Source: an uncultured Planctomycetia bacterium
GTDB lineage: Bacteria; Omnitrophota; Gorgyraeia; JABMRG01
DNA length: 55,736 nucleotides
NCBI GenBank assembly: GCA_964506565.1
Contig: CAZDLP010000001.1
Coordinates: 2,139-57,874 of the forward strand
Reading direction: 5' to 3'
The notes beneath the pieces were generated by a model. That model was given only the letters and a program-made list of their open reading frames with translations. It did not search any database and was not told the origin of the DNA. Below are positions 30 to 55,542 of this stretch, piece after piece. Position numbers and translations under genes: made by a program. Every line of letters begins with the position of its first letter. Within the stretch, counting starts at the first letter, position 1.

Positions 30-187
30 TAAAATAACTTTGCTACAATTATGCAGGGACGTAAAATTTTCCCAGCGTGAAAATTTTACTCTATTTTTCT
101 GCTCGCTCTCGCATAATATCTAATCAGGGCGAACCTTGCCCGCTCGCATTAAAAAAGCCCTGCATTAATTGCAGCAAAGTCATTTTT
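30..187 (-). repeat. Structured ~157-nt repeat, copy A (candidate small ncRNA or MITE-like element); sense strand inferred as minus
   Basis: The reverse complement aligns gap-free to copy C (14634..14790) with 130/157 identities by hand count. It has a long outer stem (actttgctgcaatt / aattgtagcaaagt), a second stem, and a perfect 10-bp hairpin gtaaaatttt/aaaattttac with loop cacgctggg. The outer-stem mismatch is a G.U pair only when read on the minus strand. Confidence 0.6.
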
Positions 188-223
188 ATGCATCTTAACT
201 AAAATCAATATTATCATTCCTCT

Positions 224-366
224 CTTTGGTGTGATTCAGAGCAGGACCTTTTTATTGCGAATGGCATGGTTTTTCCGTGTTCTTTAGATTGTATGAATGA
301 GCAATAAAGCGGAGCGAAAAAACCACGCTGGGGGTTTTGAGCGTTCCTGCGGGAATCACGCCGAAG
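224..366 (+). repeat. Structured repeat, copy B (more diverged), sense plus; back-to-back with copy A
   Basis: Same architecture as A and C. The outer stem ctttggtgtgattc / gaatcacgccgaag has two U.G pairs that are valid only on the plus strand. The second stem is ttattgc/gcaataa. The third hairpin is aaaacc..ggtttt around the conserved loop (c)acgctggg. The shared core is agcagg..tgcga..catggtt..ttaga..acgctggg..gttcctgcg. Confidence 0.55.
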
Positions 367-394
367 CGAGGACATAGACTTGTTTTGCTATGAG

Positions 395-1738
395 TTAAAT
401 GGTGTAAAGGGTTAGGCGCTTAAAACGGCTAACTCTGCCTCTTGAAGGGTTAAAGTAGCCGAGCATGAGTGATGGAAATTCTTTTTTAAGGTCACTGATC
501 AACTCTTTTATACCACATAATACGGCTACATCGGGTGATATCTTGAGTTCTCTAAAATAGTACAAGGGATCTATATTTAGGTTCCTTAACTGGACCATAT
601 CTAACTTGCATTTGCGAAGTAATCGCTTGAATTCCCTTACCTCATCCTCAGAATCGGTAAAACCCGGCATAACAAGGTAATTAAGTGAGACAAAGCCACC
701 TGCATCCTTGGCTATTTTTATTGATTTTAAGACATCGCTGAATTTATACCCTTGCGGCTTATAATACCTGTTGTAATATTTCTCCTGCGCGCTGTTTATG
801 CTTACGCGTATACTGCTTAATCCTGCCGCAAACAACCTCTTTACTACCTCTGGCTTGCTGGCATTGGTATTTAGGTTTATGACGCCTCTGGCGGTCTCTA
901 TTCTTATCTGCTTTATCGCCTCTTCTATTGCTTCTCCGGCCAAAAGGGGTTCTCCCTCGCAACCCTGGCCAAAACTTACCACTGCGTCTTTTACATTTCC
1001 TATGTGAAAGAGAGCAACTTGGGAGATTTCTTCCGAAGAAGGTATAAATTTTATCCTTGGCTGTGTTACTGCGCATCTCTTGTCAGGCTGATGCGATATA
1101 CATCCTATACAGCGCGAATTACATGATGGCGAAGTAGGAAGCGGCGCCTCGTGCCTTTTTAAGAACAGATTCTTAGCGGCAGGACAGTTATAGCATAAAG
1201 CGCATCTTTCAAGATGTGTAAAAAGCCTGTTTTTGGAAAAGAGCTTTCTTACTTTATTTATCCCTGTTTTTATCCTGGGTATACTCATAAAACGCAAATC
1301 CTGACGTGTGCTTCTATCAACCCTTATGGCTGATACATAAAACTTATCCCTGTAAAAACAGACCGCTGAATATGAAAAAAGCGGCAGGATCTTTGCATTA
1401 GAACTTTCTATATATGAAGCGTTGTAGGTTATGGTATATCCCGGAGAGATAAAGGCAGAGACCGCAAAACAAGGTTCTTCTTTCTTAGAATATGGGTTTC
1501 TGTCTATTGCTACAAAGCCTTTTGATTTGTAATCGTAACCAACAGCAAGCCTTTGCGGCATAATAAATAGCTCACTTCCGAAAGGAAGCTCTATGAGATC
1601 TTTTTTAACAAGCTTAAAGAATGTGCCTGCCTTCATGCCTGTAGCCTGCAGATAGTCAATAGCGTATATCTTTCCACACTTATCAGCAACGACTAACTGC
1701 AACATATCCTTTTTGCGCTGATTATCTTCTATTGCCAT
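395..1738 (-). CDS. Radical SAM protein with an uncharacterised ~200-aa N-terminal domain
   Basis: 447-aa ORF with the CxxxCxxC motif 'CNSRCIGC' followed by a TIM-barrel-like region (GQGCEGEPLL). The N-terminal half has no motif I recognise. Confidence 0.7.
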   Translation of the reverse strand: MAIEDNQRKKDMLQLVVADKCGKIYAIDYLQATGMKAGTFFKLVKKDLIELPFGSELFIMPQRLAVGYDYKSKGFVAIDRNPYSKKEEPCFAVSAFISPGYTITYNASYIESSNAKILPLFSYSAVCFYRDKFYVSAIRVDRSTRQDLRFMSIPRIKTGINKVRKLFSKNRLFTHLERCALCYNCPAAKNLFLKRHEAPLPTSPSCNSRCIGCISHQPDKRCAVTQPRIKFIPSSEEISQVALFHIGNVKDAVVSFGQGCEGEPLLAGEAIEEAIKQIRIETARGVINLNTNASKPEVVKRLFAAGLSSIRVSINSAQEKYYNRYYKPQGYKFSDVLKSIKIAKDAGGFVSLNYLVMPGFTDSEDEVREFKRLLRKCKLDMVQLRNLNIDPLYYFRELKISPDVAVLCGIKELISDLKKEFPSLMLGYFNPSRGRVSRFKRLTLYTI

Positions 1739-2663
1739 ATGATAATACCGCTCTCTTTAGCCCATCGTGCGTTGATACCTTAGGAAAATATCCTAACTTC
1801 TCTCTTATTCTCTGAATACTGTAGATTCTGTCCTTTTTAAAAAAAGAAAGCCCCTTATTACAGAAAGGGATTATTTTAAGGAATGAGACCAGTCTTTCTG
1901 GAATGCTAAAAGGCGGCTTTGCACTTTGGACGCTAGCTATATATTCAAAAAATTCCTTGATAGTAAGGACTTCATTATCCGCGACAATATACGTACCCTC
2001 ATAAGCCGCGTCATTATCTATAGCCAACATCATAACATCAACAACATTATCTATATAAACCAACTGAAGTTTATTGTCTCCCGGCCCCACAATAGGAAGC
2101 AAGCGCCATCTGCTAAGTCTTGATATCAAACCTAATAGATGAGGTTCATCTTCTCCATAGACCATGACAGGCCTTATAATCAATATTTTCCTCCCTTTTT
2201 TCCGATATGAAAAAGCTATCTTCTCCGCCTCTATCTTGGATTCTCCGTATTGATTGGTCGCGCTATAAGGAAGGTCATCTGTAAGCGGTACTTGGTGATT
2301 GCCACTTACAACTGAAATCGAGCTTAAGTATACTACCTTTTCTATCGCCTCTTTAGCGCAGGCATCAAGAACATTTCGAGTGCCGTCTCTGTTAACGCGC
2401 ATAAGCTTATCAAGAGAAAAATTATCTACAAGTGCCGCACAATGAAATACTATATCAGGCTTTTCTTTGCCTAGTAAGTCTCTTAACATCACGGGGTCTT
2501 CTATGTCTAGGCGTATCGCCTTTACCTTATCGAGTAAACTGCCTAGCTTAGAAAGCATACGCCCTGTACAGATAACTTCATGTCCATCCTGTACAAGGCG
2601 CCCTGATAACCTCTTACCGATAAACCCGGTTGCTCCTGTTATGAGTATTTTCATAGTGTTCAA
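1722..2663 (-). CDS. NAD-dependent epimerase/dehydratase (SDR family)
   Basis: 313 aa with the N-terminal Rossmann motif 'ILITGATGFIG'. It overlaps the downstream radical SAM gene by 17 nt. Confidence 0.8.
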   Translation of the reverse strand: MNTMKILITGATGFIGKRLSGRLVQDGHEVICTGRMLSKLGSLLDKVKAIRLDIEDPVMLRDLLGKEKPDIVFHCAALVDNFSLDKLMRVNRDGTRNVLDACAKEAIEKVVYLSSISVVSGNHQVPLTDDLPYSATNQYGESKIEAEKIAFSYRKKGRKILIIRPVMVYGEDEPHLLGLISRLSRWRLLPIVGPGDNKLQLVYIDNVVDVMMLAIDNDAAYEGTYIVADNEVLTIKEFFEYIASVQSAKPPFSIPERLVSFLKIIPFCNKGLSFFKKDRIYSIQRIREKLGYFPKVSTHDGLKRAVLSYGNRR

Positions 2664-2672
2664 TAAACTAGG

Positions 2673-2701
2673 AATAAACTAGGGACAGCGCCTAGTTTAT
2701 T
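2673..2701 (-). terminator. Hairpin overlapping the porin stop codon (11-bp stem aataaactagg/cctagtttatt)
   Basis: Perfect 11-bp inverted repeat with a 7-nt loop. One arm is tandemly duplicated at 2662..2672, which allows alternative pairing. The downstream U tract is weak. Confidence 0.4.
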
Positions 2702-4079
2702 AGAAATCAAGGTGGCCTCTGCAACCTATGACAGTAATGGTCTGGTCTCTTCTCTGGCCATTGACAACATAATCATTACCGAACGGGTTCCATACGACCT
2801 GTAGATCCGGGGAAAACGCGAAATGCTCATTAACAAACCAGTTATAATAAATCTCCGCATGGCCTTCATCGTCTGCCTTCAGGTTGGTGCCGCCATACTC
2901 TTTATATTTATCGCTCGGTATTACCATGCCGCATGCTATTCCGATATGATCCTTCTCTCTGCCCCATGGCTTTCCTTTAAATGACAAACCAGCAGACCAT
3001 GTATGCTCGATAGAGAAATTAGTACCACTGGATGAGGTAACAGCAGGATTGTAAAGATCAGGGTCGGCCCAGCCATAACGGCCGAATACTCCTACAACAT
3101 CAGTAACCTCCTGATCTACACTGACTCCAAGGCCGTATCTATGCTCTGCTGTCTTTGTTATATCACTCCACTTGGTGTAATTTGTATTCCTTAGCCAGCC
3201 ATATACCCTATAATTTCCTATAAGGCCCTCTCCAAACTTGGGCTTAAATATTATCTCCGGGGTAAATTCAAGGTGATCTGTCATATTCTCCCACTCTCCG
3301 TCACCTGTAAATACCTGCCCCTGCAACTCCAGCCACTCTATATCTTTCGGCCTTAACCTGGCCCATAACCCCGGTGCCTTACTGGGCCTATCAAATGTAG
3401 CGGCATTATTGAATATCTCAGCCAAAAACTGCCTTGAATCGTCACCTGCCATAAGGTTTTTATCGATGACATCTGTCGGATCCCACTTACCCGCAGCTAG
3501 TGATATCTGCTTATCAAAGAGATTATGCTCATACCAGAATTTAGTCAATTCAACATCGTTATTTGTGTCGTCATTATTATTGTCGACGTTTGAAAAGACC
3601 TCAAGCGAGTCCATTACACCTGTGCCATCACCTGCCTCGATCTGAACAAAGGCGTAACCATAATCTTTGAACTCCTTCTCAAGCTGGATATCCACCTGGT
3701 AGCTTCCGCCGGTTACGTCTTCCTTATTATTGGTAGTGCGATTCGCGTCAATGCCACCTTGTACAATCATTGTAGCGCCTATACCTAACTTAAGGCCAAG
3801 CGAATTAATAGCTACTTTATTGTTTATATCCTTTTCTATCTTACCGAGAACATGCTTCTCTACGCGATGCTCTATCTCTGTCTCCATAACATCGGTTGAA
3901 GGCTTAGCTTCCTCTTTCGCCTGCACGCCTGAAACCTTCTTTTCTAAGACTGATATCCTTTCTCTTAGCTCCTCTATCACCTGTAAAAGCTCCTCATTGC
4001 TCGGCTCTGAAGCCATTACAGCTAATACGGGTAAGGCAATCAAGCAGACCGATATAAATAATACCTTAAAACATCTCAT
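2700..4079 (-). CDS. Outer-membrane porin, OprB/carbohydrate-porin-like, with signal peptide and N-terminal coiled coil
   Basis: 459 aa with a hydrophobic signal (LIALPVLAVMA), a coiled-coil stretch (EELLQVIEELRERISVLEKK), an aromatic/Gly-rich beta-strand pattern and a terminal Phe. Confidence 0.65.
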   Translation of the reverse strand: MRCFKVLFISVCLIALPVLAVMASEPSNEELLQVIEELRERISVLEKKVSGVQAKEEAKPSTDVMETEIEHRVEKHVLGKIEKDINNKVAINSLGLKLGIGATMIVQGGIDANRTTNNKEDVTGGSYQVDIQLEKEFKDYGYAFVQIEAGDGTGVMDSLEVFSNVDNNNDDTNNDVELTKFWYEHNLFDKQISLAAGKWDPTDVIDKNLMAGDDSRQFLAEIFNNAATFDRPSKAPGLWARLRPKDIEWLELQGQVFTGDGEWENMTDHLEFTPEIIFKPKFGEGLIGNYRVYGWLRNTNYTKWSDITKTAEHRYGLGVSVDQEVTDVVGVFGRYGWADPDLYNPAVTSSSGTNFSIEHTWSAGLSFKGKPWGREKDHIGIACGMVIPSDKYKEYGGTNLKADDEGHAEIYYNWFVNEHFAFSPDLQVVWNPFGNDYVVNGQRRDQTITVIGCRGHLDF

Positions 4080-4116
4080 AGAATATAACCTCCGTTTTTT
4101 TATTTTATATATTTTT

Positions 4117-4146
4117 ATTATAACAATGAGGGGATAACTATTGCAA
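4117..4146 (-). promoter_or_regulatory. Sigma70-like promoter for the porin gene
   Basis: On the minus strand, TTGCAA - 18 nt - TATAAT. It lies about 30 nt upstream of a GGAGG SD and the ATG at 4079. Confidence 0.5.
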
Positions 4147-4200
4147 CTTAATTTAAAGGGAATAGATGATTTTTTACGGAAGGTGGATTATCGAATATCT

Positions 4201-4911
4201 TTATAACCCTAAGAATTGGATCGCCATGCCTGATAAACATATAGCAGCGCCTGCCAAGGCATGCGTGTATCTCTCGATCTTTTTTATAGGCACTAAGTTG
4301 ATACCAAATGATACGATTACGACGATACCTGTCATGGTAGCTAAGGTAACGATACCAAAGACAGACGTTACCAGGATAAGCCCCATCAAGGAACCTTTGG
4401 CCGCGGGATACATCAGGATAGGTATTAAGGGCTCGCATGGGCCTAACACAAAGACTACAAAGAGTATCCATGGGGTTATGCTCTTTACTTTATCTTCATG
4501 CACATGGCTGTGTACATCTACATGGCTATGGTGATGGCTATGCTTCTTTTCATCATCATGTACATGTATGTGCGTATGGGGCTTATTGCGTATTGCCATT
4601 CTTACACCCCATAAAAAATACGCGAAACCAAATCCGATAAGCGCCCAAGCCGCTATGTTACCTCTAAAGGACTCAAAAACCTCAAGCTTCATAAGAGCTA
4701 TCCCTGCCGCTATCCCTATCAGTCCTAACACAACGGAACTTAATACATGGCCCAACCCGCATGCTATAGTAATAGATAATGTCTTTGCAAAAGACCAGTT
4801 GCGCGCTTTTTTCATAACTATAAATGGTAAGTAATGATCAGGGCCAAAGAGGGTATGCAAAAAACCTATTGAAGCGGCTGTAACGCACAAAAGCCATAAT
4901 GAGCTAGTCAT
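4201..4911 (-). CDS. Putative nickel/cobalt transporter with a His-rich loop (NicO/RcnA- or HupE-like)
   Basis: 236-aa polytopic membrane protein with the central loop 'HTHIHVHDDEKKHSHHHSHVDVHSHVHED' and the N-terminal motif 'HTLFGPDH'. It is the last gene of the hydrogenase gene string and overlaps the protease gene by 4 nt. Confidence 0.65.
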   Translation of the reverse strand: MTSSLWLLCVTAASIGFLHTLFGPDHYLPFIVMKKARNWSFAKTLSITIACGLGHVLSSVVLGLIGIAAGIALMKLEVFESFRGNIAAWALIGFGFAYFLWGVRMAIRNKPHTHIHVHDDEKKHSHHHSHVDVHSHVHEDKVKSITPWILFVVFVLGPCEPLIPILMYPAAKGSLMGLILVTSVFGIVTLATMTGIVVIVSFGINLVPIKKIERYTHALAGAAICLSGMAIQFLGL

Positions 4912-5354
4912 AATAATTCCTTTATCGTATCTACTATAATCGGTATCCTAGATTCGATTAAACCGGTAAGCCTGAGATTATATGAAACATCCTCGGGCTG
5001 AACCCCGACAATAATAATTTCAGGGTTCATATCAAGTGCCTTGGAAAGGGTAAGCGTTTCAAGTAACGCCATCCCGTGAGTTGAAAAGCTATCGCAAAAT
5101 GTAGATTCCTTTATCTGGTCAAAGGTAAAGACCTTTATCTCACCGGAAGGCGCTTTCATATCAGCGGCATCTACAATTATTACGCGCTTAAATTCAGGGA
5201 AGAACTTTATAAGATCCATGCCTGATAAGTCGCCTCTCTCGAGAACAACATTATCAGGCAAGGAATCTTTTTCCAATTCATCAATCACGCGAGGGCCGAT
5301 GCCATCGTCGCCTTTTAGAATGGAGCCTATACCTATTACTAAGATCTTATTCAT
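4908..5354 (-). CDS. [NiFe]-hydrogenase maturation endopeptidase
   Basis: 148 aa with 'VIGIGSILKGDDGIGPRV', typical of the HycI/HoxW/FrhD family. It lies directly downstream of the large subunit. Confidence 0.85.
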   Translation of the reverse strand: MNKILVIGIGSILKGDDGIGPRVIDELEKDSLPDNVVLERGDLSGMDLIKFFPEFKRVIIVDAADMKAPSGEIKVFTFDQIKESTFCDSFSTHGMALLETLTLSKALDMNPEIIIVGVQPEDVSYNLRLTGLIESRIPIIVDTIKELL

Positions 5355-5363
5355 AAATAGCTT

Positions 5364-6710
5364 TTAGACAAATTTTACATCAAGCATATGGCATGAGCAG
5401 GATATACACGGGTCATATGCCCTTACCAGCATCTCCGCCAAAAGCGTGATCTCATCCTTAGGTTTATTAATAAACTCCGGAACCAGTTTCTTAAGATCGA
5501 GATCTATATTCGCTAAGTTCTGATTCGTAGGTATTACACAGTTAGCGTTATTGACAATGCCCTTGCTATCTATATCGTAATCATGGACAAGAAGCCCGCG
5601 TGGAACCTCTACCGCTCCAACGCCTTTTCCTGAGTTACAGCTAAAGCTCTCCTTCTCATCTACCCTAGGCCATGAACTTACAACCTGATCATAATCCACG
5701 CCATCCTTGATAAAGCGCTCTATGATAGCCAGAGAATCAGCATAGCAATGGGCTATCTCGATAAGCTGAGCAACGGTATTCATATATGGGTTATAACATG
5801 GCGTTTTAAACCCAAGTGTATTTGCTACAGACTTTCCTAGTTTATTAAGCTTATCAAAGTTTATATTTATCCTTGCCAAGGCACCAACCATATAAGAGCC
5901 TCTTTTGTTCTTAGAATGCTTTGACGTGCTGTGCGCAACATGATATTCATGGATCGCCTGCCTGTAATCTATAGGCTTAATCGCGCCCTCGATATCTGTT
6001 GAAGTGATGTCGCCATCCAGAAAAGCGTATTCATCAGGGTGGGTTAAGGCGATATACTCTGTCTCACGTTCAAAGGCAGGAAGCTTTGGCGCTAGAGATT
6101 TTATGGTATCTACCGTGATCATAAGGTCGTCTTCCTGAGACTTTAGGATGTCCCTCATCGCTTTTAGTTCTTTTTGCGTCGGAAGCTTTGTAAAACCCCG
6201 CGGACAGCATGTTATCGGGTGTGTATGCCTTCCGGCAAGTATGTCGCACAAATCGCTATATTGTTTTTTCATTCTAAGGGCGCGAAGCACTACATCCTTG
6301 TGTGTCGCGACAAGCGGCAGTACACTCTTTGCCCCGAGCGCGTCAGGTGCAACAAGAAAATATATATGTAGTAGATGACTATCGAATGTTTCGTAATGCA
6401 AGAGAAGCTTTCTAAAGGCATTGGTCTGCTCTGAAGGCTTAAACCCTGCCGCGTCTTCGCTCGCTTTTATCGATGCCATGCAATGGCCTGTTGAGCATAT
6501 TCCGCATATACGCGATGTTATATGCTGGACCTCAAATATAGATCTTCCCCTTACCATAGCCTCAAAAAATCGCGGTGCCTCGATTATATCAAGTTCACAT
6601 TTTTCTAGAATTCCTTTTTTGATATTTATAACTATGTTTCCATGGCCCTCTACGCGTGTTACGTATTCAACATTTATATCAAGCTCTTTCTTCGCTAATT
6701 GTTCACTCAT
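5364..6710 (-). CDS. hydA: [NiFe]-hydrogenase large (alpha) subunit, group 3b type
   Basis: 448 aa with the N-terminal Ni-binding motif 'RICGICSTGH' and the C-terminal motif 'DPCISCSCH', followed by a short cleavable tail MLDVKFV. Confidence 0.9.
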   Translation of the reverse strand: MSEQLAKKELDINVEYVTRVEGHGNIVINIKKGILEKCELDIIEAPRFFEAMVRGRSIFEVQHITSRICGICSTGHCMASIKASEDAAGFKPSEQTNAFRKLLLHYETFDSHLLHIYFLVAPDALGAKSVLPLVATHKDVVLRALRMKKQYSDLCDILAGRHTHPITCCPRGFTKLPTQKELKAMRDILKSQEDDLMITVDTIKSLAPKLPAFERETEYIALTHPDEYAFLDGDITSTDIEGAIKPIDYRQAIHEYHVAHSTSKHSKNKRGSYMVGALARININFDKLNKLGKSVANTLGFKTPCYNPYMNTVAQLIEIAHCYADSLAIIERFIKDGVDYDQVVSSWPRVDEKESFSCNSGKGVGAVEVPRGLLVHDYDIDSKGIVNNANCVIPTNQNLANIDLDLKKLVPEFINKPKDEITLLAEMLVRAYDPCISCSCHMLDVKFV

Positions 6711-7465
6711 TTTTTATCTGCCTCCATTCTACACGCGTTATAAAGATCGAACCGCTGTGTAAGCTCCTCTAGTGAATAACCGTTATTCTTTAATACATCT
6801 ATCTGGCCTTGCTCAGCCGGATTATCAAGAAGGCCTCTGCAGCCATAACAGGTGTTACCATTGCTTATACACCACGCGTCACAGCCTGCCCTTGTAACAG
6901 GACCCATACAAACCTGGCCCTTCTCAAAGAGGCACACATTCTCTTTTAACTTGCATTCTACACATACAGAATGATTTGGAACCTTATACCCTTTTCCGAG
7001 TAATATCGATTTTAGTACCTTTACGGTCTCATCGTTATTAGTAGGGCAACCATGTATGTAATAGTCTACCTTGACTATATCATGTACAGGACGTGGTTCA
7101 CCGGCCTCGAGAGGAAACTCTCTTCCCTTGTAAACTATCTCCTTGGCCTCATCCTGAGTAAAACGTTTTCTTAAACCATTTATACCACCTATGCAGGCAC
7201 AGGCACCATAAGCTATGATTATCTTGGCGTTGCCTCTTATCTTTTTAACTCGCTCTTCGTCATGCTTGCGTGTGATAGAGCCCTCGATAAACGCTATATC
7301 ATAGTCATCGCTCTTTTCAGAAATAGCCTCTCTGAAATTTACAATTTCGCAATGTTCCAGGACGCCTAAGAACGCTTCATTAAGATACAAGAGCTGAAGC
7401 TGGCATCCTTCGCAATCAGCAAAATCAAAAAACGCTATTCTAACCTTTTTCTTCGCCTTGCTCAT
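6707..7465 (-). CDS. hydD: [NiFe]-hydrogenase small (delta) subunit, group 3 type
   Basis: 252 aa with 'IAFFDFADCEGCQ' and several further Cys clusters. It overlaps both neighbours by 4 nt. Confidence 0.85.
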   Translation of the reverse strand: MSKAKKKVRIAFFDFADCEGCQLQLLYLNEAFLGVLEHCEIVNFREAISEKSDDYDIAFIEGSITRKHDEERVKKIRGNAKIIIAYGACACIGGINGLRKRFTQDEAKEIVYKGREFPLEAGEPRPVHDIVKVDYYIHGCPTNNDETVKVLKSILLGKGYKVPNHSVCVECKLKENVCLFEKGQVCMGPVTRAGCDAWCISNGNTCYGCRGLLDNPAEQGQIDVLKNNGYSLEELTQRFDLYNACRMEADKK

Positions 7466-8334
7466 AGTGCCTCCTCCAATCCTTTTATCTCTGAATATTT
7501 AAATGTTGGCCCATCCTTACAAACATATAGGTGATTTATCTGGCAGTGGCCGCATTTGCCAAGTCCGCATTTCATGCGCCTTTCAAGGGAAAGGATTATC
7601 TGGTTATCCGCTAAGCCTTTCTTTACAAGCTCGGCTATAACAAACTTATACATAATAGGCGGGCCTACAACAACAGCGTATGTCTTGTTTACATCTATAT
7701 CCGCACCCGGTAAAAGGCTTGTGATAACGCCGACGTTGCCTTTCCAATCAGGATCCGCCTTGTCAACCGTGCAGGCATAACCTATATCCGCCATCTTTTC
7801 CCATCTTGTGACTTCCTCCTTAAACAACCTATCCTTCGGGGCCTTACATCCTAGAAGTACTGTCACTTTACCAAAGTCTCTTCTTCTATCAATAACGAAA
7901 TTTATCAATGAGCGAAGAGGGACTATGCCAAGGCCACCTGCTACAAATAACAGGTCATTTCCCTTTAGCTCCTCTATAGGAAAGCCTTTCCCAAAGGGGC
8001 CTCTTACACCTATCTTATCTCCCACGTCAAGTTTGTGTAGAGCGTTTGTAAACGCCCCGGTGTTACGCACGCATATCTCGAAGTGGTTCCTCTCTTCCTT
8101 GGTAGGGGATGAGGATATAGATATAGGGGCCTCTCCTATACCTAATATTGAAAACTGGGCAAACTGTCCGGGCTGATGCCCAAGCGGGTTGCCGTCTTCG
8201 AGTCTTATCTCAAAGAACTTTTCATTCTCTGTCATTTTCTTTGCCTTAACGATCTCGCCTACACGATGTGAATATACAGGCTCGACATCTACGGATGTGT
8301 TACACGTACAATCATTTGAGTTATTTTTTTGCAT
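7462..8334 (-). CDS. hydG: Hydrogenase gamma subunit (FAD/NAD(P)-binding, [2Fe-2S])
   Basis: 290 aa with a ferredoxin-reductase-type fold (GPFG, GGLGIVP) and the C-terminal Cys motif 'CGLGKCGHCQ'. Confidence 0.8.
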   Translation of the reverse strand: MQKNNSNDCTCNTSVDVEPVYSHRVGEIVKAKKMTENEKFFEIRLEDGNPLGHQPGQFAQFSILGIGEAPISISSSPTKEERNHFEICVRNTGAFTNALHKLDVGDKIGVRGPFGKGFPIEELKGNDLLFVAGGLGIVPLRSLINFVIDRRRDFGKVTVLLGCKAPKDRLFKEEVTRWEKMADIGYACTVDKADPDWKGNVGVITSLLPGADIDVNKTYAVVVGPPIMYKFVIAELVKKGLADNQIILSLERRMKCGLGKCGHCQINHLYVCKDGPTFKYSEIKGLEEAL

Positions 8335-9379
8335 CTTTATGCTCCTTTGTAAGTTCGTTTACGGTATCTATTAAGCTTATCTTTGCCATACATGTTCTTG
8401 TGCATCGCCCACAACCTACACAAAAGAACTTATTATACTTTTTAACGGAATAATCGAACTTTCTGTGATATCTGTGCCTCTGTCTCGCGGAGCGCTCCTC
8501 GCGAAAACTCTCGCCCCCGGCTACCTCGGCAAATTCCTCAAGCTGGCAGGAATCCCAAACCCTGTTTCTGGTTCCCTTGGTGACATCGAGGGTAACTGTA
8601 TCATATATATCAAAGCAATAACATGTAGGACAAACTGCTGTGCAATTTCCGCATGAGAGACAGCGCTTTCCGACGTTCTCCTGCCAAAACTTGCTGGAAT
8701 ACGAGTCTTTAAAGACCCTTCTGAGCTCCTTGTACCCCGCGTCAAGTTTGTTATCAAAATTTTTAAGCTTCGCTTCTTGCAGGGCCTTAAGCTCTGCTTT
8801 TATCTTGCCCTCAAGTTCAGCAGTAGTCTTACCAAATAACGGGCTTTTGCCTATCAGCTTGTCTCCGGCCATTGAATTAATATGCACGATATATTTATCC
8901 CCGGCATCTGTAAGCATTATGTCATATCCCGCTTTAGGGACATGTGTATCCATCGCGACGCATGTCGCGTACTCATCGCAGGGCTTCATACACTCATAAC
9001 CTATTATGATTATGCTCTTCTTTTTCTTGGCAAAATACGGATCTGCCGGGCTATCATTGAGGGCTACATCTAGGCACTCTATGCCCTCTATGTCGCATGT
9101 ACGTACGCCAAATAATATCAAAGGCTCCACATCAACCTGGGTGCTGCTCATCTTGGCCTCGCCCATATTGAAATCCCCAAGTTTTTGATGCTGCGGCATA
9201 AAATATTTTTTTGGTGGCAGTATAGTAGGTATATAATCAAGGCTTACCTGGCTAGCGTCCTCCACTTGGGCAAAGACAAACTGGTTCTCCTTCTTTACAG
9301 GAGCTACCACCTTCTGCTTTTTAATAAGCCCCTCTACAAACTTTTTAAAATCCGCTTTATTCAGATAACCGTATCTCAT
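8321..9379 (-). CDS. hydB: Hydrogenase beta subunit (4Fe-4S protein)
   Basis: 352 aa with 'CLSCGNCTAVCPTCYC' and 'CVGCGRCTRTC'. The beta-gamma-delta-alpha order and the subunit sizes match sulfhydrogenase-type group 3b enzymes. Confidence 0.8.
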   Translation of the reverse strand: MRYGYLNKADFKKFVEGLIKKQKVVAPVKKENQFVFAQVEDASQVSLDYIPTILPPKKYFMPQHQKLGDFNMGEAKMSSTQVDVEPLILFGVRTCDIEGIECLDVALNDSPADPYFAKKKKSIIIIGYECMKPCDEYATCVAMDTHVPKAGYDIMLTDAGDKYIVHINSMAGDKLIGKSPLFGKTTAELEGKIKAELKALQEAKLKNFDNKLDAGYKELRRVFKDSYSSKFWQENVGKRCLSCGNCTAVCPTCYCFDIYDTVTLDVTKGTRNRVWDSCQLEEFAEVAGGESFREERSARQRHRYHRKFDYSVKKYNKFFCVGCGRCTRTCMAKISLIDTVNELTKEHKDAKK

Positions 9380-9382
9380 ATG

Positions 9383-10066
9383 CTATCTCTCCTTTTTTAT
9401 GTTAATTCTTTTTGTTATCCAACCTATAAATTCATCGATGCCATCACCTTTAAGAGACGATATCTTTATTATAGGCGCCTTTGAATTTACACCTTGTATA
9501 TTTTTTATACATTCATCTATATCAAACGGTAGATGTCCTAGGAGATCCACCTTATTCAAGAGTACTAGCTCGCTTTCTGTAAAGACCAGCGGGTATTTTT
9601 TAGGCTTATCGTCACCTTCGGGGATACTTAAGATGACTATTTTACAGTCTTCACCGATATCAAATTCCGCGGGGCAGACTAAATTGCCTACATTCTCAAC
9701 GATAAGAAGGTCAAGCCCATCCATATTAATTTCAGAGATCGCTTTTTTTATAAAACCGGCATCGATATGGCATGAGTTGCCTGTATTAATCTGAATTACC
9801 TGTGCACCCGCCTTGTCTATGCGAGTCGCGTCATTGGATGTAAAACAATCCCCTGTTAAAACGGCAAAACTTATGCCCGCGTCTTTTAACATAGGCGGTA
9901 TCTTTTCAATGAGGGTAGTCTTTCCAGCACCCGGAGAGGAGATTATATTAATCATCAGGGTCTTGCTCTTTTTCATAGACTCCCTGATAACACTAGCTGT
10001 GTTATCATTCGCTTTAAGAACATTTTCCTTTATAACCTTAAATGCCATATTCACTCCTGTTACCAT
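9383..10066 (-). CDS. hypB: Hydrogenase nickel-incorporation GTPase HypB
   Basis: P-loop 'SSPGAGKTT', plus 'ENVGNLVCP' and 'NKVDL'. The true start may be the internal Met at 10048. Confidence 0.9.
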   Translation of the reverse strand: MVTGVNMAFKVIKENVLKANDNTASVIRESMKKSKTLMINIISSPGAGKTTLIEKIPPMLKDAGISFAVLTGDCFTSNDATRIDKAGAQVIQINTGNSCHIDAGFIKKAISEINMDGLDLLIVENVGNLVCPAEFDIGEDCKIVILSIPEGDDKPKKYPLVFTESELVLLNKVDLLGHLPFDIDECIKNIQGVNSKAPIIKISSLKGDGIDEFIGWITKRINIKKER

Positions 10067-10398
10067 TCTATGGATTTTAATATAAACTCTTTACCTGATA
10101 CGATATCAACGTCCTTGCTTAAACAAAAACTACAGATAAAATTATTCTCATCTGTAGAGCTTTCCTTGCCGCAGTCCGAACATCTAAGCTTGACCGGCAA
10201 TACCTTAAGATCTAATTTCGCCTGTTTAAGCTTGTCGCTTTTTTCAATCTGCGCAAAACAAGATGTCACAATCTCTGGAACAAGATATCTTAATCTACCG
10301 ACTTCCAGATAAACGGTCTTTACTTGGCCTACATCGTTTGGGCGTACCGCGTCTTCGAGAAGAGAGACTAAATTTTTAGTGATCATCAGCTCATGCAT
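10060..10398 (-). CDS. hypA: Hydrogenase nickel-insertion protein HypA
   Basis: 112 aa with the N-terminal 'MHE' Ni site and the Zn motifs 'CSDCG' and 'CSFC'. Confidence 0.9.
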   Translation of the reverse strand: MHELMITKNLVSLLEDAVRPNDVGQVKTVYLEVGRLRYLVPEIVTSCFAQIEKSDKLKQAKLDLKVLPVKLRCSDCGKESSTDENNFICSFCLSKDVDIVSGKEFILKSIEW

Positions 10399-10404
10399 AA
10401 GACT

Positions 10405-11409
10405 TTAACATATCCTCGGTATCGGGTCAGCTGAAAGCATGCCCAATACACGTGTTGCGCCTAAGGGCGTTTTGAGACAAACCATATCTTGATTATCCTG
10501 CGTAATCTCGCCTATGCTCGCTGCATTACTGCCATATTCATTACTACGCAATATCTCCAATGCCTTTGCCTCATACTCTTTATCAATTATAACAAGCGCC
10601 TTGCCTTCGTTAGCTATATACAACGGATCCAGGCCTAATAATTCACACGCTGACCTTACGCTATCTAATACAGGTACTCTTTCTTCCTCGATCATTATGC
10701 CAAAATCTTTATGTTTTACTATTTCATTTAATGTAGTGGCAACGCCTCCACGGGTGGCATCGCGCATAAATTTTACCTCTTTAATATTGTCTGTAAGAAC
10801 TTTAAGCATATGATTAAGAGGCGCACAATCGCTTATGGATTCGCTCTCGAACTCAAACCCTTTATGTTTGCTAAGAACAGCTATACCATGGTCACCCAAA
10901 TTACCTGTGACAATAATTTTATCGCCAACAGATATATTATCAACGCTTAAGTTTATGCCGTCTCTTAAAACCCCTATGCCTGATGTATTAATAAATATGC
11001 TATCAACACTATTTTTCTCAACTACCTTTGTATCGCCACATACTATATCAACCCCGGCAATCTTTGCCCAGGATGCCATCGATTCAACTATTTTTCTAAG
11101 ATCTTCTATATCCAAGCCTTCTTCAAGTATAAATCCGCAGCTTAAATATTTGGGCGTAGCGCCATTTACCGCCAAGTCATTAACTGTTCCGCAGATAGAG
11201 AGCTTGCCTATATCACCCCCCGGAAAGAATAATGGCTTTATAACAAAGGAGTCTGTTGTAAACGCTATATTAGCAGCCTCTCCGGGCAAGATAGCGGAAT
11301 CGTCATTTTTGCTTAGAAACTTATTACCAAGATGCTTAAAAAATACGCTCTCTATAAGCTCTTGCGTTAATGTGCCACCGCTTCCATGTGCTAATGTTAT
11401 CTTAGACAT
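10405..11409 (-). CDS. hypE: Hydrogenase maturation protein HypE
   Basis: 334 aa with a PurM-like fold and the C-terminal 'PRIC' carbamoylation/cyanation motif. Confidence 0.9.
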   Translation of the reverse strand: MSKITLAHGSGGTLTQELIESVFFKHLGNKFLSKNDDSAILPGEAANIAFTTDSFVIKPLFFPGGDIGKLSICGTVNDLAVNGATPKYLSCGFILEEGLDIEDLRKIVESMASWAKIAGVDIVCGDTKVVEKNSVDSIFINTSGIGVLRDGINLSVDNISVGDKIIVTGNLGDHGIAVLSKHKGFEFESESISDCAPLNHMLKVLTDNIKEVKFMRDATRGGVATTLNEIVKHKDFGIMIEEERVPVLDSVRSACELLGLDPLYIANEGKALVIIDKEYEAKALEILRSNEYGSNAASIGEITQDNQDMVCLKTPLGATRVLGMLSADPIPRIC

Positions 11410-11411
11410 AA

Positions 11412-12515
11412 TTAATCACCATACCTGTGAGCCGCTGCGCAACTTCCCTCACTTGAAACCATACACGCGCCTCTTGGATTAGAGGGGGTACAGATATTCC
11501 TAAAGAGTTTACAATCGCTTGGCACTTTTGCGCCTCTTAATATATCGCCGCATATACAGTCTTTCTCCGATATCGAGGTGGGCCTATCTATTTTAAATGT
11601 ATTGAGTACGTCAAACCTTGAATACTCATCCTTAAGCGCGAGTCCGCTGTCTGGTATATTGCCCAAGCCCCGCCATTGGACATCAGAGGGCTTAAAGACT
11701 TTTTCCATAATACTTAACGCCTTCTCATTGCCTTGCGCCTTAACAGCTCTTTTATACGCGTTAACCAACTTGGCCTGGTTTTTTTCAGCAAGTTCCGTTA
11801 GGATGTATATGCTTGTAAGTATATCTGATGGCTCAAAACCCGTAACGCAGCAGGGTATGCGCAGCTTATCAACTATAAAATTATACATATCCGTACCCGC
11901 TATCGTACTAACATGCCCCGGACAGATAAGCCCATCTATATCGGTCCTGCTATCCTCCAATATCGCTTTAAGCGCTCTGGGCATAGTCTTATTTAACGAT
12001 AATATATAAAAATTATCTAAACCATCCTGATCAGCCTGGATAATAGCAGCGGCAGCAGTTGGCGCTGTCGTCTCAAAACCGATGCTTATGAAAACGAACT
12101 TTTTTTCTCTTTCTTCCTTGGCAAGTGTAATAACATCTCTGACAGAATAGACTATTCTTATATCGGCACCTTCTGCTCTTTGCTTATCAAGGGTAAGAGA
12201 GCCTGTTCCAGGCACATTAAAGAGATCACCAAAAGTACATATAACCAGCCCCTCAATCCTTGATAAGGCTAAAACCATGTCTATATCTTCTACTGAGGTA
12301 ACGCATACAGGGCATCCGGGCCCTGATATCAGTTTTATGTTATCGCCGATAAGTTTGTGTATGCCGTTTTTATGTATCGCCATTGTGTGGCCGCCGCATA
12401 CCTCCATTATCTTTAATCTTTTTTTAGATATCGCCTTTATCTTTTCCACTATATCCGCGCAAAGGCCTTTGTCTCTATATTCATCGATAAACTTAAGCAT
12501 TATTATGCTTTCCAT
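11412..12515 (-). CDS. hypD: Hydrogenase maturation protein HypD
   Basis: 367 aa with 'CGGHT' and 'GPGCPVCV', and a C-terminal Cys cluster. Confidence 0.9.
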   Translation of the reverse strand: MESIIMLKFIDEYRDKGLCADIVEKIKAISKKRLKIMEVCGGHTMAIHKNGIHKLIGDNIKLISGPGCPVCVTSVEDIDMVLALSRIEGLVICTFGDLFNVPGTGSLTLDKQRAEGADIRIVYSVRDVITLAKEEREKKFVFISIGFETTAPTAAAAIIQADQDGLDNFYILSLNKTMPRALKAILEDSRTDIDGLICPGHVSTIAGTDMYNFIVDKLRIPCCVTGFEPSDILTSIYILTELAEKNQAKLVNAYKRAVKAQGNEKALSIMEKVFKPSDVQWRGLGNIPDSGLALKDEYSRFDVLNTFKIDRPTSISEKDCICGDILRGAKVPSDCKLFRNICTPSNPRGACMVSSEGSCAAAHRYGD

Positions 12516-12711
12516 TAAAAAAATCTATTGTAAAGTTCGCGCTCTCTTCATCAACTTTTTGTATAGCGTAACCGGCATGCACAACAACATACTCACCGAC
12601 CTTTGGATCATCTATAATATCAAGGCCGACATCCTTTTTTAAGCCTGATATCTCCACCGTGGCTATGTTTTCTTTTATTTCCAGTATCTTACCCGGAACC
12701 GACCAGCACAT
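12493..12711 (-). CDS. hypC: Hydrogenase assembly chaperone HypC
   Basis: 72 aa starting 'MCWSVPGKI' (essential Cys2). Confidence 0.9.
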   Translation of the reverse strand: MCWSVPGKILEIKENIATVEISGLKKDVGLDIIDDPKVGEYVVVHAGYAIQKVDEESANFTIDFFNGKHNNA

Positions 12712-12718
12712 AACTTTT

Positions 12719-13801
12719 TCACCTTATATTTTCGCAGACCGTAGCCTGGCCAACGGAGATCCCGATATCTGTTGTAGAAAACTTGCTATGCGTATATAGC
12801 TTAAGTTTGGTCTCTTTAAAGCGCTTTTTAAGATAATCCAGGAGAAACTTATTCTGAAAACACCCGCCTGATATCACTACCTTGTCAACGCCTATCGCGG
12901 AATAAGCCCTCATGCACATATCGACTATCGCCTCGCCTAATGTATTATGAAATTTCGCGCTTATCACAGATATATCTTCCCCATCATAGATATCATCCAC
13001 GATCTCTCTTATAGTAGGAGAAAAGTCTATATGATGCGACGTTATCTTGTATGTGTAATAATCATATACCGATTTCGCGGCGTTTTTTTCAAGCAATATA
13101 GCTGCTTCTGCCTCAAATGTCGATTCCCGGCATATGCCGAGCATAGCTGAGACCGCGTCAAAGAGCCTTCCGGCGCTTGATGTAAGCGGCGAGTTCACAT
13201 TCTTCTTTATCATGTTGCTTATGATCTCAATATTTCCACGACTCATACCAAGGAATAATGGCAAGTCAAGGTCAAGAAACTCATCCCCAAAGGCCTGTAT
13301 AAGATAACTTATAGCCATTCTCCAGCCTTGCTTTGCCGCGACATCTCCCCCCGGTTGCGGAGCGTATCTTATGTGGTTTAACCTGTAAAAGCTCTTTCTT
13401 GTCGCTAGCAGGAATTCTCCTCCCCAGAGATTTCCATCCATGCCATAACCTGTGCCATCAAAAGAGACGCCTATTACCTTTTCATCTATATTATTATCAA
13501 ACATACACGAAGCGATATGCGCAAAATGGTGCTGCACCTGCACGAGCCTGGCGTTCTCGCCCTCGCTGCTGAGTTTTTTTGCCAGATTGGTAGTAGAATA
13601 TTCAGGATGAAAATCGCATGCTATGTAATCCGGGCTTACATTATTCTCTTTAATATAAGTTCTGACGGAATTCTCAAATTCGTTTATACCGGCAAGATGG
13701 TTAAGCTGATTAACAGGGTCACTTATATAAAGGCCTTTATCAGAAAATACCGTGAATGTATTCTTGCTCTCCGCTCCTAAGGCTATTATGTTTTTTTTCA
13801 T
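12719..13801 (-). CDS. hypF: HypF-like carbamoyltransferase, Kae1-like C-terminal domain only
   Basis: 360 aa with 'ALGAESKNTF' and 'VQHHFAHIASC', as in the C-terminal domain of HypF. No acylphosphatase, Zn-finger or YrdC-like region is present, and the rex stop codon lies only 5 nt upstream. Confidence 0.75.
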   Translation of the reverse strand: MKKNIIALGAESKNTFTVFSDKGLYISDPVNQLNHLAGINEFENSVRTYIKENNVSPDYIACDFHPEYSTTNLAKKLSSEGENARLVQVQHHFAHIASCMFDNNIDEKVIGVSFDGTGYGMDGNLWGGEFLLATRKSFYRLNHIRYAPQPGGDVAAKQGWRMAISYLIQAFGDEFLDLDLPLFLGMSRGNIEIISNMIKKNVNSPLTSSAGRLFDAVSAMLGICRESTFEAEAAILLEKNAAKSVYDYYTYKITSHHIDFSPTIREIVDDIYDGEDISVISAKFHNTLGEAIVDMCMRAYSAIGVDKVVISGGCFQNKFLLDYLKKRFKETKLKLYTHSKFSTTDIGISVGQATVCENIR

Positions 13802-13805
13802 TAAT

Positions 13806-14453
13806 TTACTCTTTTTTTGTCTGTTTTGAGCCTGCTAAAAAATAGGATAATGTCTCAAGCTCTCTTGAAAGATCAACATTCTTTACTTTTACATCCTCAG
13901 GGACGCTAAGGCTTATAGGCGCGAAATTCATTATGCATTTTATGCCGGCCGCAACCAGTGAATCCGCGACCTTTTGAGCATGATTAGCCGGAATAGTAAT
14001 AATGCCTATGGCTAAATCCTTCTGCTTTACGGTTTTTGATAACTCGTCAATAGATTGAATTATCAGGGAGTTTTTTTCCTTGTCGATCTTTTTAGTGTCA
14101 GCGTCAAATACAGCTACCACATTCAAACCCTGCTCTTTAAATCCAGGATAGGCCAACAACGCAGAACCTAAATGACCAACACCTATAACGCAGACATTCC
14201 ACGTCTTATCTTTACCTAGGATAGTCTTTAAGGCCGCTTTTAGCTCATTGATATTATACCCGGAACCACTTATACCGAACTGGCCAAAATAACTAAAATC
14301 TTTGCGCACCTGCGTATCGCTGAGATTGAGCCTTTCGCCAAGCTCTGAAGATGATATAGTGCGTATACCTATCTCAGCGAGCTTGGATATCTCTCTAAGA
14401 TAGATAAATAAACGCGATATAGTTGTCTCTGGGATCTTTTTATTATTATTCAT
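13806..14453 (-). CDS. rex: Redox-sensing transcriptional repressor Rex
   Basis: 215 aa. The N-terminal winged helix is 'RLFIYLREI...SSELGERLNLSDTQVRKDFSYFGQFG' and the Rossmann motif is 'VIGVGHLGSAL'. Confidence 0.9.
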   Translation of the reverse strand: MNNNKKIPETTISRLFIYLREISKLAEIGIRTISSSELGERLNLSDTQVRKDFSYFGQFGISGSGYNINELKAALKTILGKDKTWNVCVIGVGHLGSALLAYPGFKEQGLNVVAVFDADTKKIDKEKNSLIIQSIDELSKTVKQKDLAIGIITIPANHAQKVADSLVAAGIKCIMNFAPISLSVPEDVKVKNVDLSRELETLSYFLAGSKQTKKE

Positions 14454-14539: not shown

Positions 14540-14633
14540 GGGAAAAAATAAGGTTTTCAAGATGAAGTAAACTAAAATCCCCCACAGGCTTTGGGAGAAT
14601 TTATTCAAGCTTCTTTAATTTTTAAGATATGGG

Positions 14634-14790
14634 GAAAATGGTTTTGCAGCGATTAAAGCAGGGCCTTGTTGATGCGAGCGAGCATGGTTCGCCCTGATTA
14701 GACGTTATGCGAGAGCGAGCAGCAACATGGAGTAAAATTTCTACGCTGGGGAAATTTTACGTTCCTGCGTAATTGCTGCAAAACCATTTC
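14634..14790 (+). repeat. Structured ~157-nt repeat, copy C (candidate ncRNA), sense plus and antisense to its neighbours
   Basis: Outer stem gaaaatggttttgcagcgatt / aattgctgcaaaaccatttc, second stem ccttgttgatgc/gcagcaacatgg, and hairpin gtaaaatttc-tacgctggg-gaaattttac. It is 83% identical to the reverse complement of copy A. A TTAAGAT -10-like box lies 5 nt upstream. Confidence 0.6.
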
Positions 14791-14866: not shown

Positions 14867-15151
14867 TTATTTTACTACGTAGTTTCCTGCGTGGCGGTCT
14901 TTTAGCTCACCAAGCTTTGATTTATTCCAATTATTAATCCTTGAATAATATCCTACTATCCTTGACATATATATAAGATCAGGTATGCCCTTCTTTATCT
15001 TTTCCCACTCCTGGGTCTTTATGCCATCATCTGATATAAATATCTTATTCTCATCTTTTCTTATCGCGATACCAGGAACCCCTTCATGCTCATACTCTGC
15101 CCATTCATAGCCGAGGTTAACTATGTTGGATATAAAAACTTCTTTTCGCAT
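14867..15151 (-). CDS. Small protein carrying an NrdD-type C-terminal glycyl-radical motif
   Basis: 94 aa. The C-terminus 'SRIVGYYSRINNWNKSKLGELKDR' matches the conserved glycyl-radical tail of class III ribonucleotide reductases. The N-terminal 60 aa are unrelated and contain no Cys. It has its own SD (AAGGAGAG). Confidence 0.6.
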   Translation of the reverse strand: MRKEVFISNIVNLGYEWAEYEHEGVPGIAIRKDENKIFISDDGIKTQEWEKIKKGIPDLIYMSRIVGYYSRINNWNKSKLGELKDRHAGNYVVK

Positions 15152-22921: not shown

Positions 22922-22958
22922 ATATCCTCCTATCATGTTTATTTACTGCTCTGTTATG

Positions 22959-23067
22959 ACCACTGTCCCGAACGATTTGGAAACCACTAACAAGCGGTTC
23001 ATACCGGAAGGTTCCTTAAATGCTGTTAATATAGTCCTATTGCATTTAAGAAACTGTTTCGGTTTTT
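22959..23067 (-). repeat. 109-nt intergenic repeat, copy R1 (between the PNPOx-family gene stop and the rbr RBS)
   Basis: Gap-free alignment to 50361..50469 gives 83/109 identities by hand count. The ends are identical (accactgtcccgaac ... aaactgtttcggttttt). A conserved 9-bp hairpin shows two compensatory changes. Confidence 0.6.
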
Positions 23068-55508: not shown

Positions 55509-55542
55509 GAAATTACTACAATAAAACCTACAACCTTACTTG

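Follow-up and report, generated by a model that had tools for sequence, protein, structure and literature searches.

A multi-copy, single-strand-specific fold with a three-way junction in intergenic DNA of the candidate phylum Omnitrophota

Contig CAZDLP010000001.1 of assembly GCA_964506565.1, from an uncultured Planctomycetia bacterium that GTDB places in Omnitrophota, holds a stretch of 55,736 nucleotides (nt; hereafter the window, meaning this whole stretch) with three copies, A, B and C, of a structured intergenic element. Copies A and B on one side and C on the other flank a 14.4-kb minus-strand operon (window 395-14453) that encodes Rex, the C-terminal part of HypF, HypD, HypE, HypA, HypB, a four-subunit [NiFe] hydrogenase (Fer4_22, FAD/NAD, small and large subunits), HycI, a DsbD_2 protein, an OprB porin, an epimerase and a radical-SAM enzyme. 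Related genomes keep this operon and differ in the element content at its end, and we found no evidence for a functional tie between the two. Recombination between A and C would invert the 14.4-kb operon.

A first-pass annotation of the window, made from its letters, had described A, B and C as one family of structured repeats with a long closing stem (P1), a second stem (P2) and a hairpin (P3). A covariance model of the family, R1, recovered all three where that annotation had placed them, with the end of B falling 7 nt beyond the earlier 366. The copies and the parts of C are as follows; P2a is a variable hairpin at the tip of P2.

31-188, minus strand: copy A, 'type 1'; P2 motif GCGAGCGGGCA...GAGCGAGCA; P3 wholly Watson-Crick.
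189-214, no strand assigned: spacer between the 5' ends of A and B; 26 nt, 19% GC; TTAAGAT at 192-198 (minus) and TATTAT at 209-214 (plus).
215-373, plus strand: copy B, 'type 2'; P2 motif GCGAAUGGCA...GAAUGAGCA; tandem G.A within P3; 5'-to-5' (back-to-back) with A.
14622-14628, plus strand: TTAAGAT box of C, 4-5 nt before P1; a putative -10 element.
14633-14790, plus strand: copy C, 'type 1'; inverted relative to A and 14.4 kb from it, beyond the Rex-Hyp-[NiFe] hydrogenase operon.
14634-14664, plus strand: P1 5' strand of C; pairs with 14761-14790; inner GCAGGGC / G-U-UCCUGC conserved in sequence, with a bulged U at 14762.
14665-14688, plus strand: P2 5' strand of C; tandem G.A at 14676-14677 opposite 14717-14718, two Watson-Crick pairs, then the 9-nt asymmetric loop GAGCAUGGU.
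14689-14712, plus strand: variable hairpin P2a of C; its four basal pairs covary, and other copies have short GC hairpins or insertions here.
14713-14731, plus strand: P2 3' strand of C and the junction dinucleotide GA (GA-GC-GA-GCA...).
14732-14760, plus strand: hairpin P3 of C; apical loop ACGCUGG at 14743-14749.
14761-14790, plus strand: P1 3' strand of C; pairing and covariation.

Over the whole window R1 matched only these three places, scoring A at 156.4 bits (E = 2e-40), B at 126.8 and C at 154. The gapless alignment of the reverse complement of A to C, counted by hand in the annotation as 130 of 157 identical positions, came to 84% identity over 155 nt, and a repeat scan of the window returned an inverted repeat with arms at 32-186 and 14635-14789 (155 nt, 84% complementary); B is 61% identical to A. 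On the strands proposed by the annotation, each copy is more stable than shuffled sequence (z = -6.2 for A, -4.9 for B and -6.7 for C), with 0 of 200 shuffles as stable in every case. The compensatory changes reported between A and C are borne out: 20 of the 28 differing positions lie in paired columns, seven pairs have changed on both sides and still pair, five other changed pairs are kept via G.U and one is lost. B, described as keeping the stems with different sequence, has 17 double compensatory pairs relative to C. The asymmetry of wobble pairs also recurs, the ratio of G.U to A.C in helices on the proposed RNA strand being 3:0 in A, 5:1 in B and 2:0 in C. The combination ACGCTGGG-N9-CGTYCCTGC occurs exactly three times in the window against 0.11 expected, and the 20 neighbouring genes that we checked include no transposase, as the annotation had said of the vicinity.

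Further copies were sought with two patterns. The first, taken from the P3 side of the element and scanned against one genome per prokaryotic species, gave 26 loci, 25 of them in metagenome-assembled genomes (MAGs) labelled Omnitrophota or in 'uncultured Planctomycetia' bins; the 26th, in a Thermoplasmata archaeon, was a chance match. One such 'Planctomycetia' bin, L018, has the window's radical-SAM gene at 79% identity, and the other named relatives of that gene are Omnitrophica/Omnitrophota. From these data came a plain MAFFT alignment of 27 copies (A2) and model R1, built with a hand-drawn structure; R1 found 38 copies in the first-pattern loci, 10 of which do not match the search pattern. 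The second pattern, from the P2 side, was scanned against metagenome contigs and matched at least 120 of them, in which R1 confirmed at least 120 copies. This wider search, proposed in the first-pass annotation, yielded at least about 170 copies in Omnitrophota genomes and metagenomes, with stem substitutions that are overwhelmingly compensatory and a GC content between 37 and 71%. The GC-rich contig L142 can be placed in Omnitrophota by its glutamine synthetase III, which shares 96% identity with the enzyme of a named MAG, and every taxonomic label obtained so far points to this candidate phylum. Ten pattern matches in viral contigs were chance matches, none of the ten being matched by the covariance model, and blastn searches of plasmid and phage collections returned no similar DNA.

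The consensus, over 159 model columns and 109 non-redundant copies, reads:

....................tt..aGCAGG.C.T........cGAgcgGGCA.GGtt..c......g..aGAgcGAG..........GAG........cCaCGCtGGG.........CGt.CCTGcga.a...

P1 is a long closing stem of 20-30 base pairs (bp) whose outer part pairs without constraint on its sequence; the inner part, which contains a bulged U, is the near-invariant GCAGGRC / G-U-YCCUGC. P2 begins right at the junction, and GA forms J2/3. The pair that closes P2 (columns 33 and 97; GC 35, UA 28, CG 25, AU 11) is absent from the model and exceeds every other column pair in mutual information. P2 continues with a tandem sheared-type G.A/A.G step and two Watson-Crick pairs, which are GC/GC in type 1 and switch jointly to AU/AU in type 2, and then opens into an asymmetric loop of 9 nt with the consensus gGGCAyGGu opposite GA, the bases of which are invariant. 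The terminal hairpin of P2 differs among copies in both length and sequence and can accommodate insertions (L017, L018, L115). P3 is a hairpin of 10-11 pairs, two A-U pairs of which are replaced by tandem G.A in some copies; its loop, C-W-CGC-N-GG-G, is still conserved in the metagenome set, for which the search pattern omitted the loop. About 55 positions of the fold are conserved, and the unpaired ones among them persist across 37-71% GC. Among copies whose cores are at least 85% identical, identity is 90% in the core, 91% in the P3 stem and 47% in outer P1, which is nevertheless still paired.

Some copies elaborate on this plan. Extra hairpins in the asymmetric P2 loop or in P2a bring lengths to about 205 nt (L017 7111-7282, L018 797-968, L115 161-365, L061 2694-2889 and 10361-10555). 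In GC-rich copies P1 runs 3-9 bp past the model (UUAGCGGGU/ACCCGCUAA), and a bulge on its 3' strand, RCAGGA, is conserved. We also tried and discarded several known motifs. A loop-loop pseudoknot through AGCG/CGCU does not fit, as type 2 turns AGCG into AAUG and leaves the loop unchanged, and no covariation for such a pseudoknot is detectable because the loops are invariant. A kink-turn, judged by inspection only, was rejected since Watson-Crick pairs border the tandem G.A on either side and the 9-nt loop lies two pairs off and is not followed by GA. A T-arm mimic, an 11-nt receptor, a retron, attC and group II domain 5 were likewise rejected on inspection.

Covariation across relatives carries the structural conclusion. 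In A2, the genome set, 80.7% of cells are paired compared with 37-49% when partners are slid, 41 of 53 pairs have changed on both sides, and the covariation score is 0.47 against 0.12-0.21, a value reached by 0 of 500 shuffles. Alignment A4, the metagenome set collected with the different search pattern, has 85.1% of cells paired against 38-47% with slid partners, 51 of 53 pairs changed on both sides, and a covariation score of 0.56 against 0.07-0.10 (again 0 of 500 shuffles); A4 was fitted to the model, which favours structure, and A2, a plain MAFFT alignment, gives the same answer. All 18 pairs of outer P1 covary, as do nine of the ten P3 pairs in A2, and in A4 every P3 pair has changed on both sides. 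The column pairs with the highest mutual information are nearly all model helices, their neighbouring columns or extra Watson-Crick pairs that extend P2. Taken together, these patterns of substitution demonstrate that the copies form a family of structured single-stranded nucleic acids of about 155-170 nt with a tight three-way junction.

The two strands are not equivalent. On the modelled strand, G.U and U.G outnumber A.C and C.A in helices by 115 to 48, and in P1 the ratio is about 3:1 once the three outermost, poorly aligned pairs are dropped. Of 135 distinct copies, 132 fold more stably on the sense than on the antisense strand, and the mean energies are -75.2 and -65.9 kcal/mol, respectively. 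Orientation that was random relative to G.U content, the sign by which the first-pass annotation would have recognised a plain miniature inverted-repeat transposable element (MITE) or repetitive extragenic palindromic (REP) element, was not seen; wobble pairs and folding energy choose the same strand in these 132 copies, whatever the orientation of the neighbouring genes. On this comparative evidence, selection acts on one strand only, and its independence of flanking-gene direction means that the selected strand is not simply that of the local mRNA.

The fold matches no family that we could find. At the gathering thresholds of Rfam 15 no copy in the window is matched, in agreement with the annotation's failure to recognise it; the whole window gave only three transfer RNAs (tRNAs), and 16 further loci gave only cyclic di-GMP (c-di-GMP) riboswitches away from the elements. 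Permissive searches returned, for the window copies (E<=10), only scores far below gathering that we judge to be chance and, for 15 further loci (E<=5), no match overlapping an element. No description turned up when Omnitrophota or Omnitrophica was paired with RNA terms in full-text literature searches, and the main genomic survey of the phylum merely mentions an Rfam run. All-against-all clustering of neighbouring genes found no protein family at more than four of about 140 element-bearing loci, those cases being synteny. By these comparisons the family is an undescribed, multi-copy, deeply conserved and single-strand-specific fold with neither a neighbouring partner gene nor a match among known families. 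As a separate observation, two c-di-GMP-I riboswitch aptamers above the Rfam gathering threshold lie within a few hundred nucleotides of elements (L143 4705-4792, plus strand; L115 1-42, minus strand); the contigs are unrelated and the proximity is probably a coincidence.

Long terminal stems are also found in bacterial Y RNAs, 6S RNA and retron msr-msd, in which paired 5' and 3' ends enclose a functional module, and Y RNAs can be multi-copy and adjacent. The Omnitrophota element, however, has no Rfam match to Y_RNA/YrlA, 6S or any other family, has different conserved motifs and has no gene for Ro or another partner nearby. As for retrons, Pfam scans of the window neighbours and of the proteins of eight other loci gave no reverse-transcriptase domain. 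A fold of this complexity, with many invariant unpaired bases, freely covarying stems and a variable closing stem, could also be a new class of self-cleaving or otherwise reactive ribozyme, with a predicted active site made of the junction and the internal and apical loops. Bacterial hammerhead and twister ribozymes have the same sporadic, multi-copy, intergenic and gene-independent distribution, but the element resembles the consensus of no Rfam ribozyme class, and no circular permutation of its stems occurs among the at least about 170 copies. We consider catalysis highly improbable.

All copies are intergenic, and their arrangement is not random. Among 31 pairs of neighbouring copies less than 2.5 kb apart, 23 are 5'-to-5', five tandem and three 3'-to-3', where 25% would be expected to be 5'-to-5' at random (p = 1e-8); with a gap of at most 150 nt the numbers are 11, two and zero (n = 13). 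The spacers of short divergent pairs are all AT-rich, and the members of short-spacer pairs are always diverged (50-69% identity) and usually, like A and B, one type 1 and one type 2. Near-identical inverted copies occur only with at least 925 nt between them, consistent with the instability of long perfect palindromes. Single copies lie mostly between co-directional genes (63 of 74), 42 antisense and 21 sense to them (p = 0.011), and the gene on the 3' side is convergent in 77 of 115 cases, its stop codon at a median of 33 nt from the 3' end of the element. An association with replication strand was also considered and dropped as uninformative, GC skew being confounded with gene strand (r = 0.95).

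We give roughly even odds (about 0.5) to the reading that the copies are a family of stand-alone small-RNA (sRNA) genes, transcribed on the selected strand into a predicted RNA. Selection on one strand independently of the flanking genes would require a transcript of the element's own. Its promoter would sit in the short AT-rich stretch directly 5' of P1, a placement that the TTAAGAT heptamer common to A and C and the -10-like enrichment described below would fit, and sharing of such a stretch would explain why neighbouring copies stand 5'-to-5'; in the window, the spacer at 189-214 is a candidate shared divergent promoter region. A single copy antisense between co-directional genes may similarly use one divergent promoter region jointly with the gene that follows and one terminator or 3'-end region jointly with the gene before it, so that signal-sharing in compact genomes could account both for the 5'-to-5' pairs and for the preference for divergent and convergent placement. 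P1 would clamp the two ends, for stability, 3'-end formation or RNase III-type processing, and the invariant internal and apical loops would be functional surfaces that bind a conserved partner, protein or RNA, or make tertiary contacts. The RNA would act in trans, as an abundant scaffold or a ribonucleoprotein component, and the family would evolve as copies duplicate, invert locally, decay and convert one another. What the element most works like, we think, is a sibling sRNA family such as Qrr1-5, LhrC1-5 or the cyanobacterial Yfr2: these too are diverged paralogues within a genome, some of them adjacent, with conserved unpaired motifs on variable stems in stand-alone intergenic genes. Sibling sRNAs are, however, shorter and have clear promoters, Rho-independent terminators and defined seeds, whereas the Omnitrophota element has a higher copy number, a long closing stem and no common terminator or promoter motif.

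The same placement could instead mark punctuation by the host, resembling REP elements and bacterial interspersed mosaic elements (BIMEs): the long hairpin would act as an insulator or bidirectional terminator, shield mRNA 3' ends or bind a nucleoid or topology protein, and no RNA would act in trans. REP/BIME elements and the REPIN doublets of Enterobacteria and Pseudomonas are likewise intergenic multi-copy hairpins, often just past stop codons, in inverted pairs with short spacers and with a presence that varies by orthologous site. Strictly intergenic copies close to convergent stop codons would fit such a role, as would the single element per transcription unit in L142 and L143, the resemblance of inverted pairs to BIME mosaics, the dispensability of copies and the small hairpin at an otherwise empty site (both described below). 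The T tract at the 3' end, found only in AT-rich type 1 copies and paired there with a 5' A tract, is also reminiscent of bidirectional terminators, but GC-rich lineages have no U tract after P1, and in two thirds of cases selection is on the strand opposite the flanking mRNAs. About 55 conserved bases with invariant loops, maintained from 37 to 71% GC, exceed what a terminator or exonuclease block needs, and binding of a protein to duplex DNA would yield neither strand-specific G.U nor covariation. REPs, moreover, are simple palindromes of 20-40 nt, near-identical within a genome, species-specific and linked to REP-associated tyrosine transposases (RAYTs), whereas the Omnitrophota element is a three-way junction of about 155 nt whose diverged copies span that GC range with covariation, invariant loops and one-strand selection; the loci that we read, as distinct from whole genomes, contain no RAYT-like gene. 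A cis-acting punctuation role is, in our judgement, distinctly unlikely.

Orthologous sites reveal how labile individual copies are. We followed the site that separates the window's radical-SAM gene from the gene next to it (GATase_7) through relatives ordered by amino-acid identity of the radical-SAM protein:

98-99% relatives (the window species): B(-) A(+), as in the window.
85% and 79% relatives: type 1(-) type 2(+), the whole pair inverted; the 85% genome also has the remnant of a third copy.
74% relative: type 2(-) with a type 1 copy cut down to its last 35 nt.
75% and 73% relatives: no element; a conserved TTTACA-N17-TGTATAAT promoter almost directly after the stop codon.

The empty site in L162 has a small hairpin instead. 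Individual copies are dispensable, one orthologous site holding a pair, an inverted pair, a remnant or nothing. The promoter named in the last row, of sigma-70 type with an extended -10, stands before the GATase_7 gene in five of five relatives, and the copies show none as clear:

TTTACA-N17-TGTATAAT promoter sites: L157 7765-7812; L161 5565-5600; L162 5385-5420; L167 2830-2870; L018 1225-1260.

At a second orthologous site, downstream of a gene for a 280-residue protein, four lineages have an element, two in each orientation. Truncated remnants also stand beside intact copies (L161 5510-5548, L159 5788-5830, L014 4173-4215); the kinds seen are the final ~35 nt of type 1, a P3/P1 fragment with an internal deletion and the initial ~40 nt of type 2.

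Such patchiness, with remnants, inversion of a whole pair and both orientations at one site in different lineages, is what a non-autonomous mobile or recombination element would produce, its fold, as RNA or single-stranded DNA, being the substrate of an enzyme encoded elsewhere, as for attC, REPIN/RAYT and IS200/IS605 ends; spread, inversion and the bracketing of small accessory genes would then be by-products, or the copies would be cassette boundaries. The 12 divergent pairs that enclose 170-1800 nt fit this explanation, mostly containing a gene; the enclosed genes are of various types, in the main orphan or membrane, they are mutually unrelated, and none matches a defence system. A comparison of L023 (6650-8000) with L101 (2500-3620) is also in its favour. 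There the flanking gene is 97% identical and the gene enclosed by the pair is wholly different (membrane proteins of 249 and 137 amino acids, neither in a Pfam family); one copy and about 32 nt upstream of it are 93% identical outside the P2a hairpin, which has been swapped, and the P3 stem, whose changes are compensated, and the other copy is only about 60% identical. This pattern indicates exchange between copies together with replacement of the enclosed DNA. In L002, identity between two copies runs exactly from TTGAACC to GGTTCAA, stopping at one and the same P1 base pair at either end, and the flanks beyond differ but are self-complementary; that symmetric boundary suits a recombination substrate, although gene conversion limited by homology would also yield it. 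Insertion into existing terminator hairpins was rejected as the origin of the copy-specific outer P1, given that removal of the element leaves a stem with no loop and that sub-families of outer stems span genomes; gene conversion of cores would explain the copy-specific outer P1 at least as well.

Strand asymmetry alone does not settle the matter in favour of RNA, because folded single-stranded DNA tolerates G.T wobble. Other features speak against mobility. Conservation peaks at the centre of the element and is lowest at its termini, the opposite of attC, MITEs and IS ends; no transposase, integrase or reverse transcriptase lies near any of the ~140 loci; the copies within a genome are old and diverged, including those in short-spacer pairs, rather than near-identical bursts; and persistence over 37-71% GC would need an equally persistent enzyme. 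MITEs such as the Neisseria Correia/NEMIS elements, ERIC, RUP and BOX share a size of about 100-160 bp, terminal inverted repeats that form a long stem, intergenic location and possible transcripts that are RNase III substrates. They have conserved termini, target-site duplications and internal drift, however, and the flanks of the Omnitrophota copies contain no consistent direct repeat, TTAAG-like strings around A and C being common only to the closest relatives. Integron attC sites are alike in being imperfect palindromes of up to ~140 nt in which one folded strand is recognised, in conserving structure more than sequence and in bordering small, variable, mostly orphan genes. They differ in having conserved outer R/L boxes with extrahelical bases, direct arrays next to an integrase and no conserved three-way-junction core; the consensus here has no R''/R' (GTTRRRY) ends, neighbouring copies, including those that bracket genes, are mostly inverted (23 of 31), and no integrase was seen. 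We regard a mobile or recombination element as unlikely. Its most specific form, a cis site of an undescribed structure-specific recombination or mobility system, a three-way-junction analogue of attC and REPINs whose inverted copies would let small orphan genes swap, we regard, on thin evidence, as very unlikely. Even so, this turnover modifies the original interpretation of a novel RNA family under one-strand selection rather than a DNA palindrome or MITE: the structured single strand stands, and the exclusion of mobile or REP-like behaviour is less secure in view of gain, loss, inversion and decay at orthologous sites.

To return to the small-RNA reading, several observations weigh against it. 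The dispensability of individual copies is one, the mosaic exchange between copies, which is more like repeat elements than like sRNA genes, is another, and a local density of up to one copy per 1.5 kb in L143 is also more repeat-like than is usual for sRNA genes. Signals for a transcript of its own are faint as well. The first-pass annotation had seen a -10-like box before P1 and a U-rich tail after it; the boxes are present in the window, TTAAGAT before A and C (with flanks that differ beyond the heptamer) and TATTAT before B, but across the family TANNNT at -11 to -6 is only about twofold enriched (40 of 128 copies against ~19 expected), and in most lineages no U tract follows P1, there being no enrichment of U after P1 across the family or in GC-rich copies. 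C is depleted in the 20 nt before P1, and before GC-rich copies lies an AT-rich run with a final T; k-mer enrichment upstream of the copies detected only this AT-richness, and no common promoter motif besides the weak -10-like signal. For the window copies we saw no convincing -35 by eye, and a promoter scan gave no site on the strand of A or B. Finally, some copies lie 9-21 nt from a flanking coding sequence in an apparent operon (L002), which leaves scant room for signals of their own.

Promoter-like matches were also seen on the antisense strand within A and C, TTGCTA-16-TAAAAT (40-67, plus) and TTTGCA-17-TAAAAT (14782-14754, minus). Made of the P1 3' strand and the AT-rich P3 stem, they would fire toward B and toward the Rex operon, respectively. 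We discarded them as promoters: they depend on the AT-rich P3 stem, are absent from GC-rich copies and are probably fortuitous.

Four other features of the window deserve mention. An exact 29-nt direct repeat, CAAGTATTATTTTTGCATGATTTACGCGA, lies at 27122-27150 and 39390-39418, 12.3 kb apart and with dissimilar flanks; it could be an operator or promoter element or a pair of attachment sites. A second direct repeat of 112 nt and 76% identity (22956-23067 and 50358-50469) probably represents two paralogous coding regions. A tRNA cluster at 55097-55618 on the minus strand comprises Gly(GCC), Leu(TAG) and Lys(CTT). An open reading frame of 94 residues (14867-15151, minus) converges on C and has a weak match to the NRDD C-terminal glycyl-radical domain (E = 4e-5, below the curated cut-off), and it may encode a small stand-alone glycyl-radical protein.

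Omnitrophota are uncultured and mostly ultra-small bacteria, and to our knowledge nothing is known of their RNA biology. The element combines some 55 conserved positions with a three-way junction and occurs many times per genome, which places it among the more elaborate unassigned RNA folds of bacteria, and folds of this complexity have often proved to be ribozymes, ribonucleoprotein scaffolds or guides for the enzymes of mobile elements. The covariance model offers a handle for annotating genomes, for seeking the predicted transcript in existing metatranscriptomes and for seeking a protein partner with the same distribution. Should it be true that the element marks the boundaries of recombination or cassettes, it would represent a new mechanism of genome plasticity in a whole phylum.

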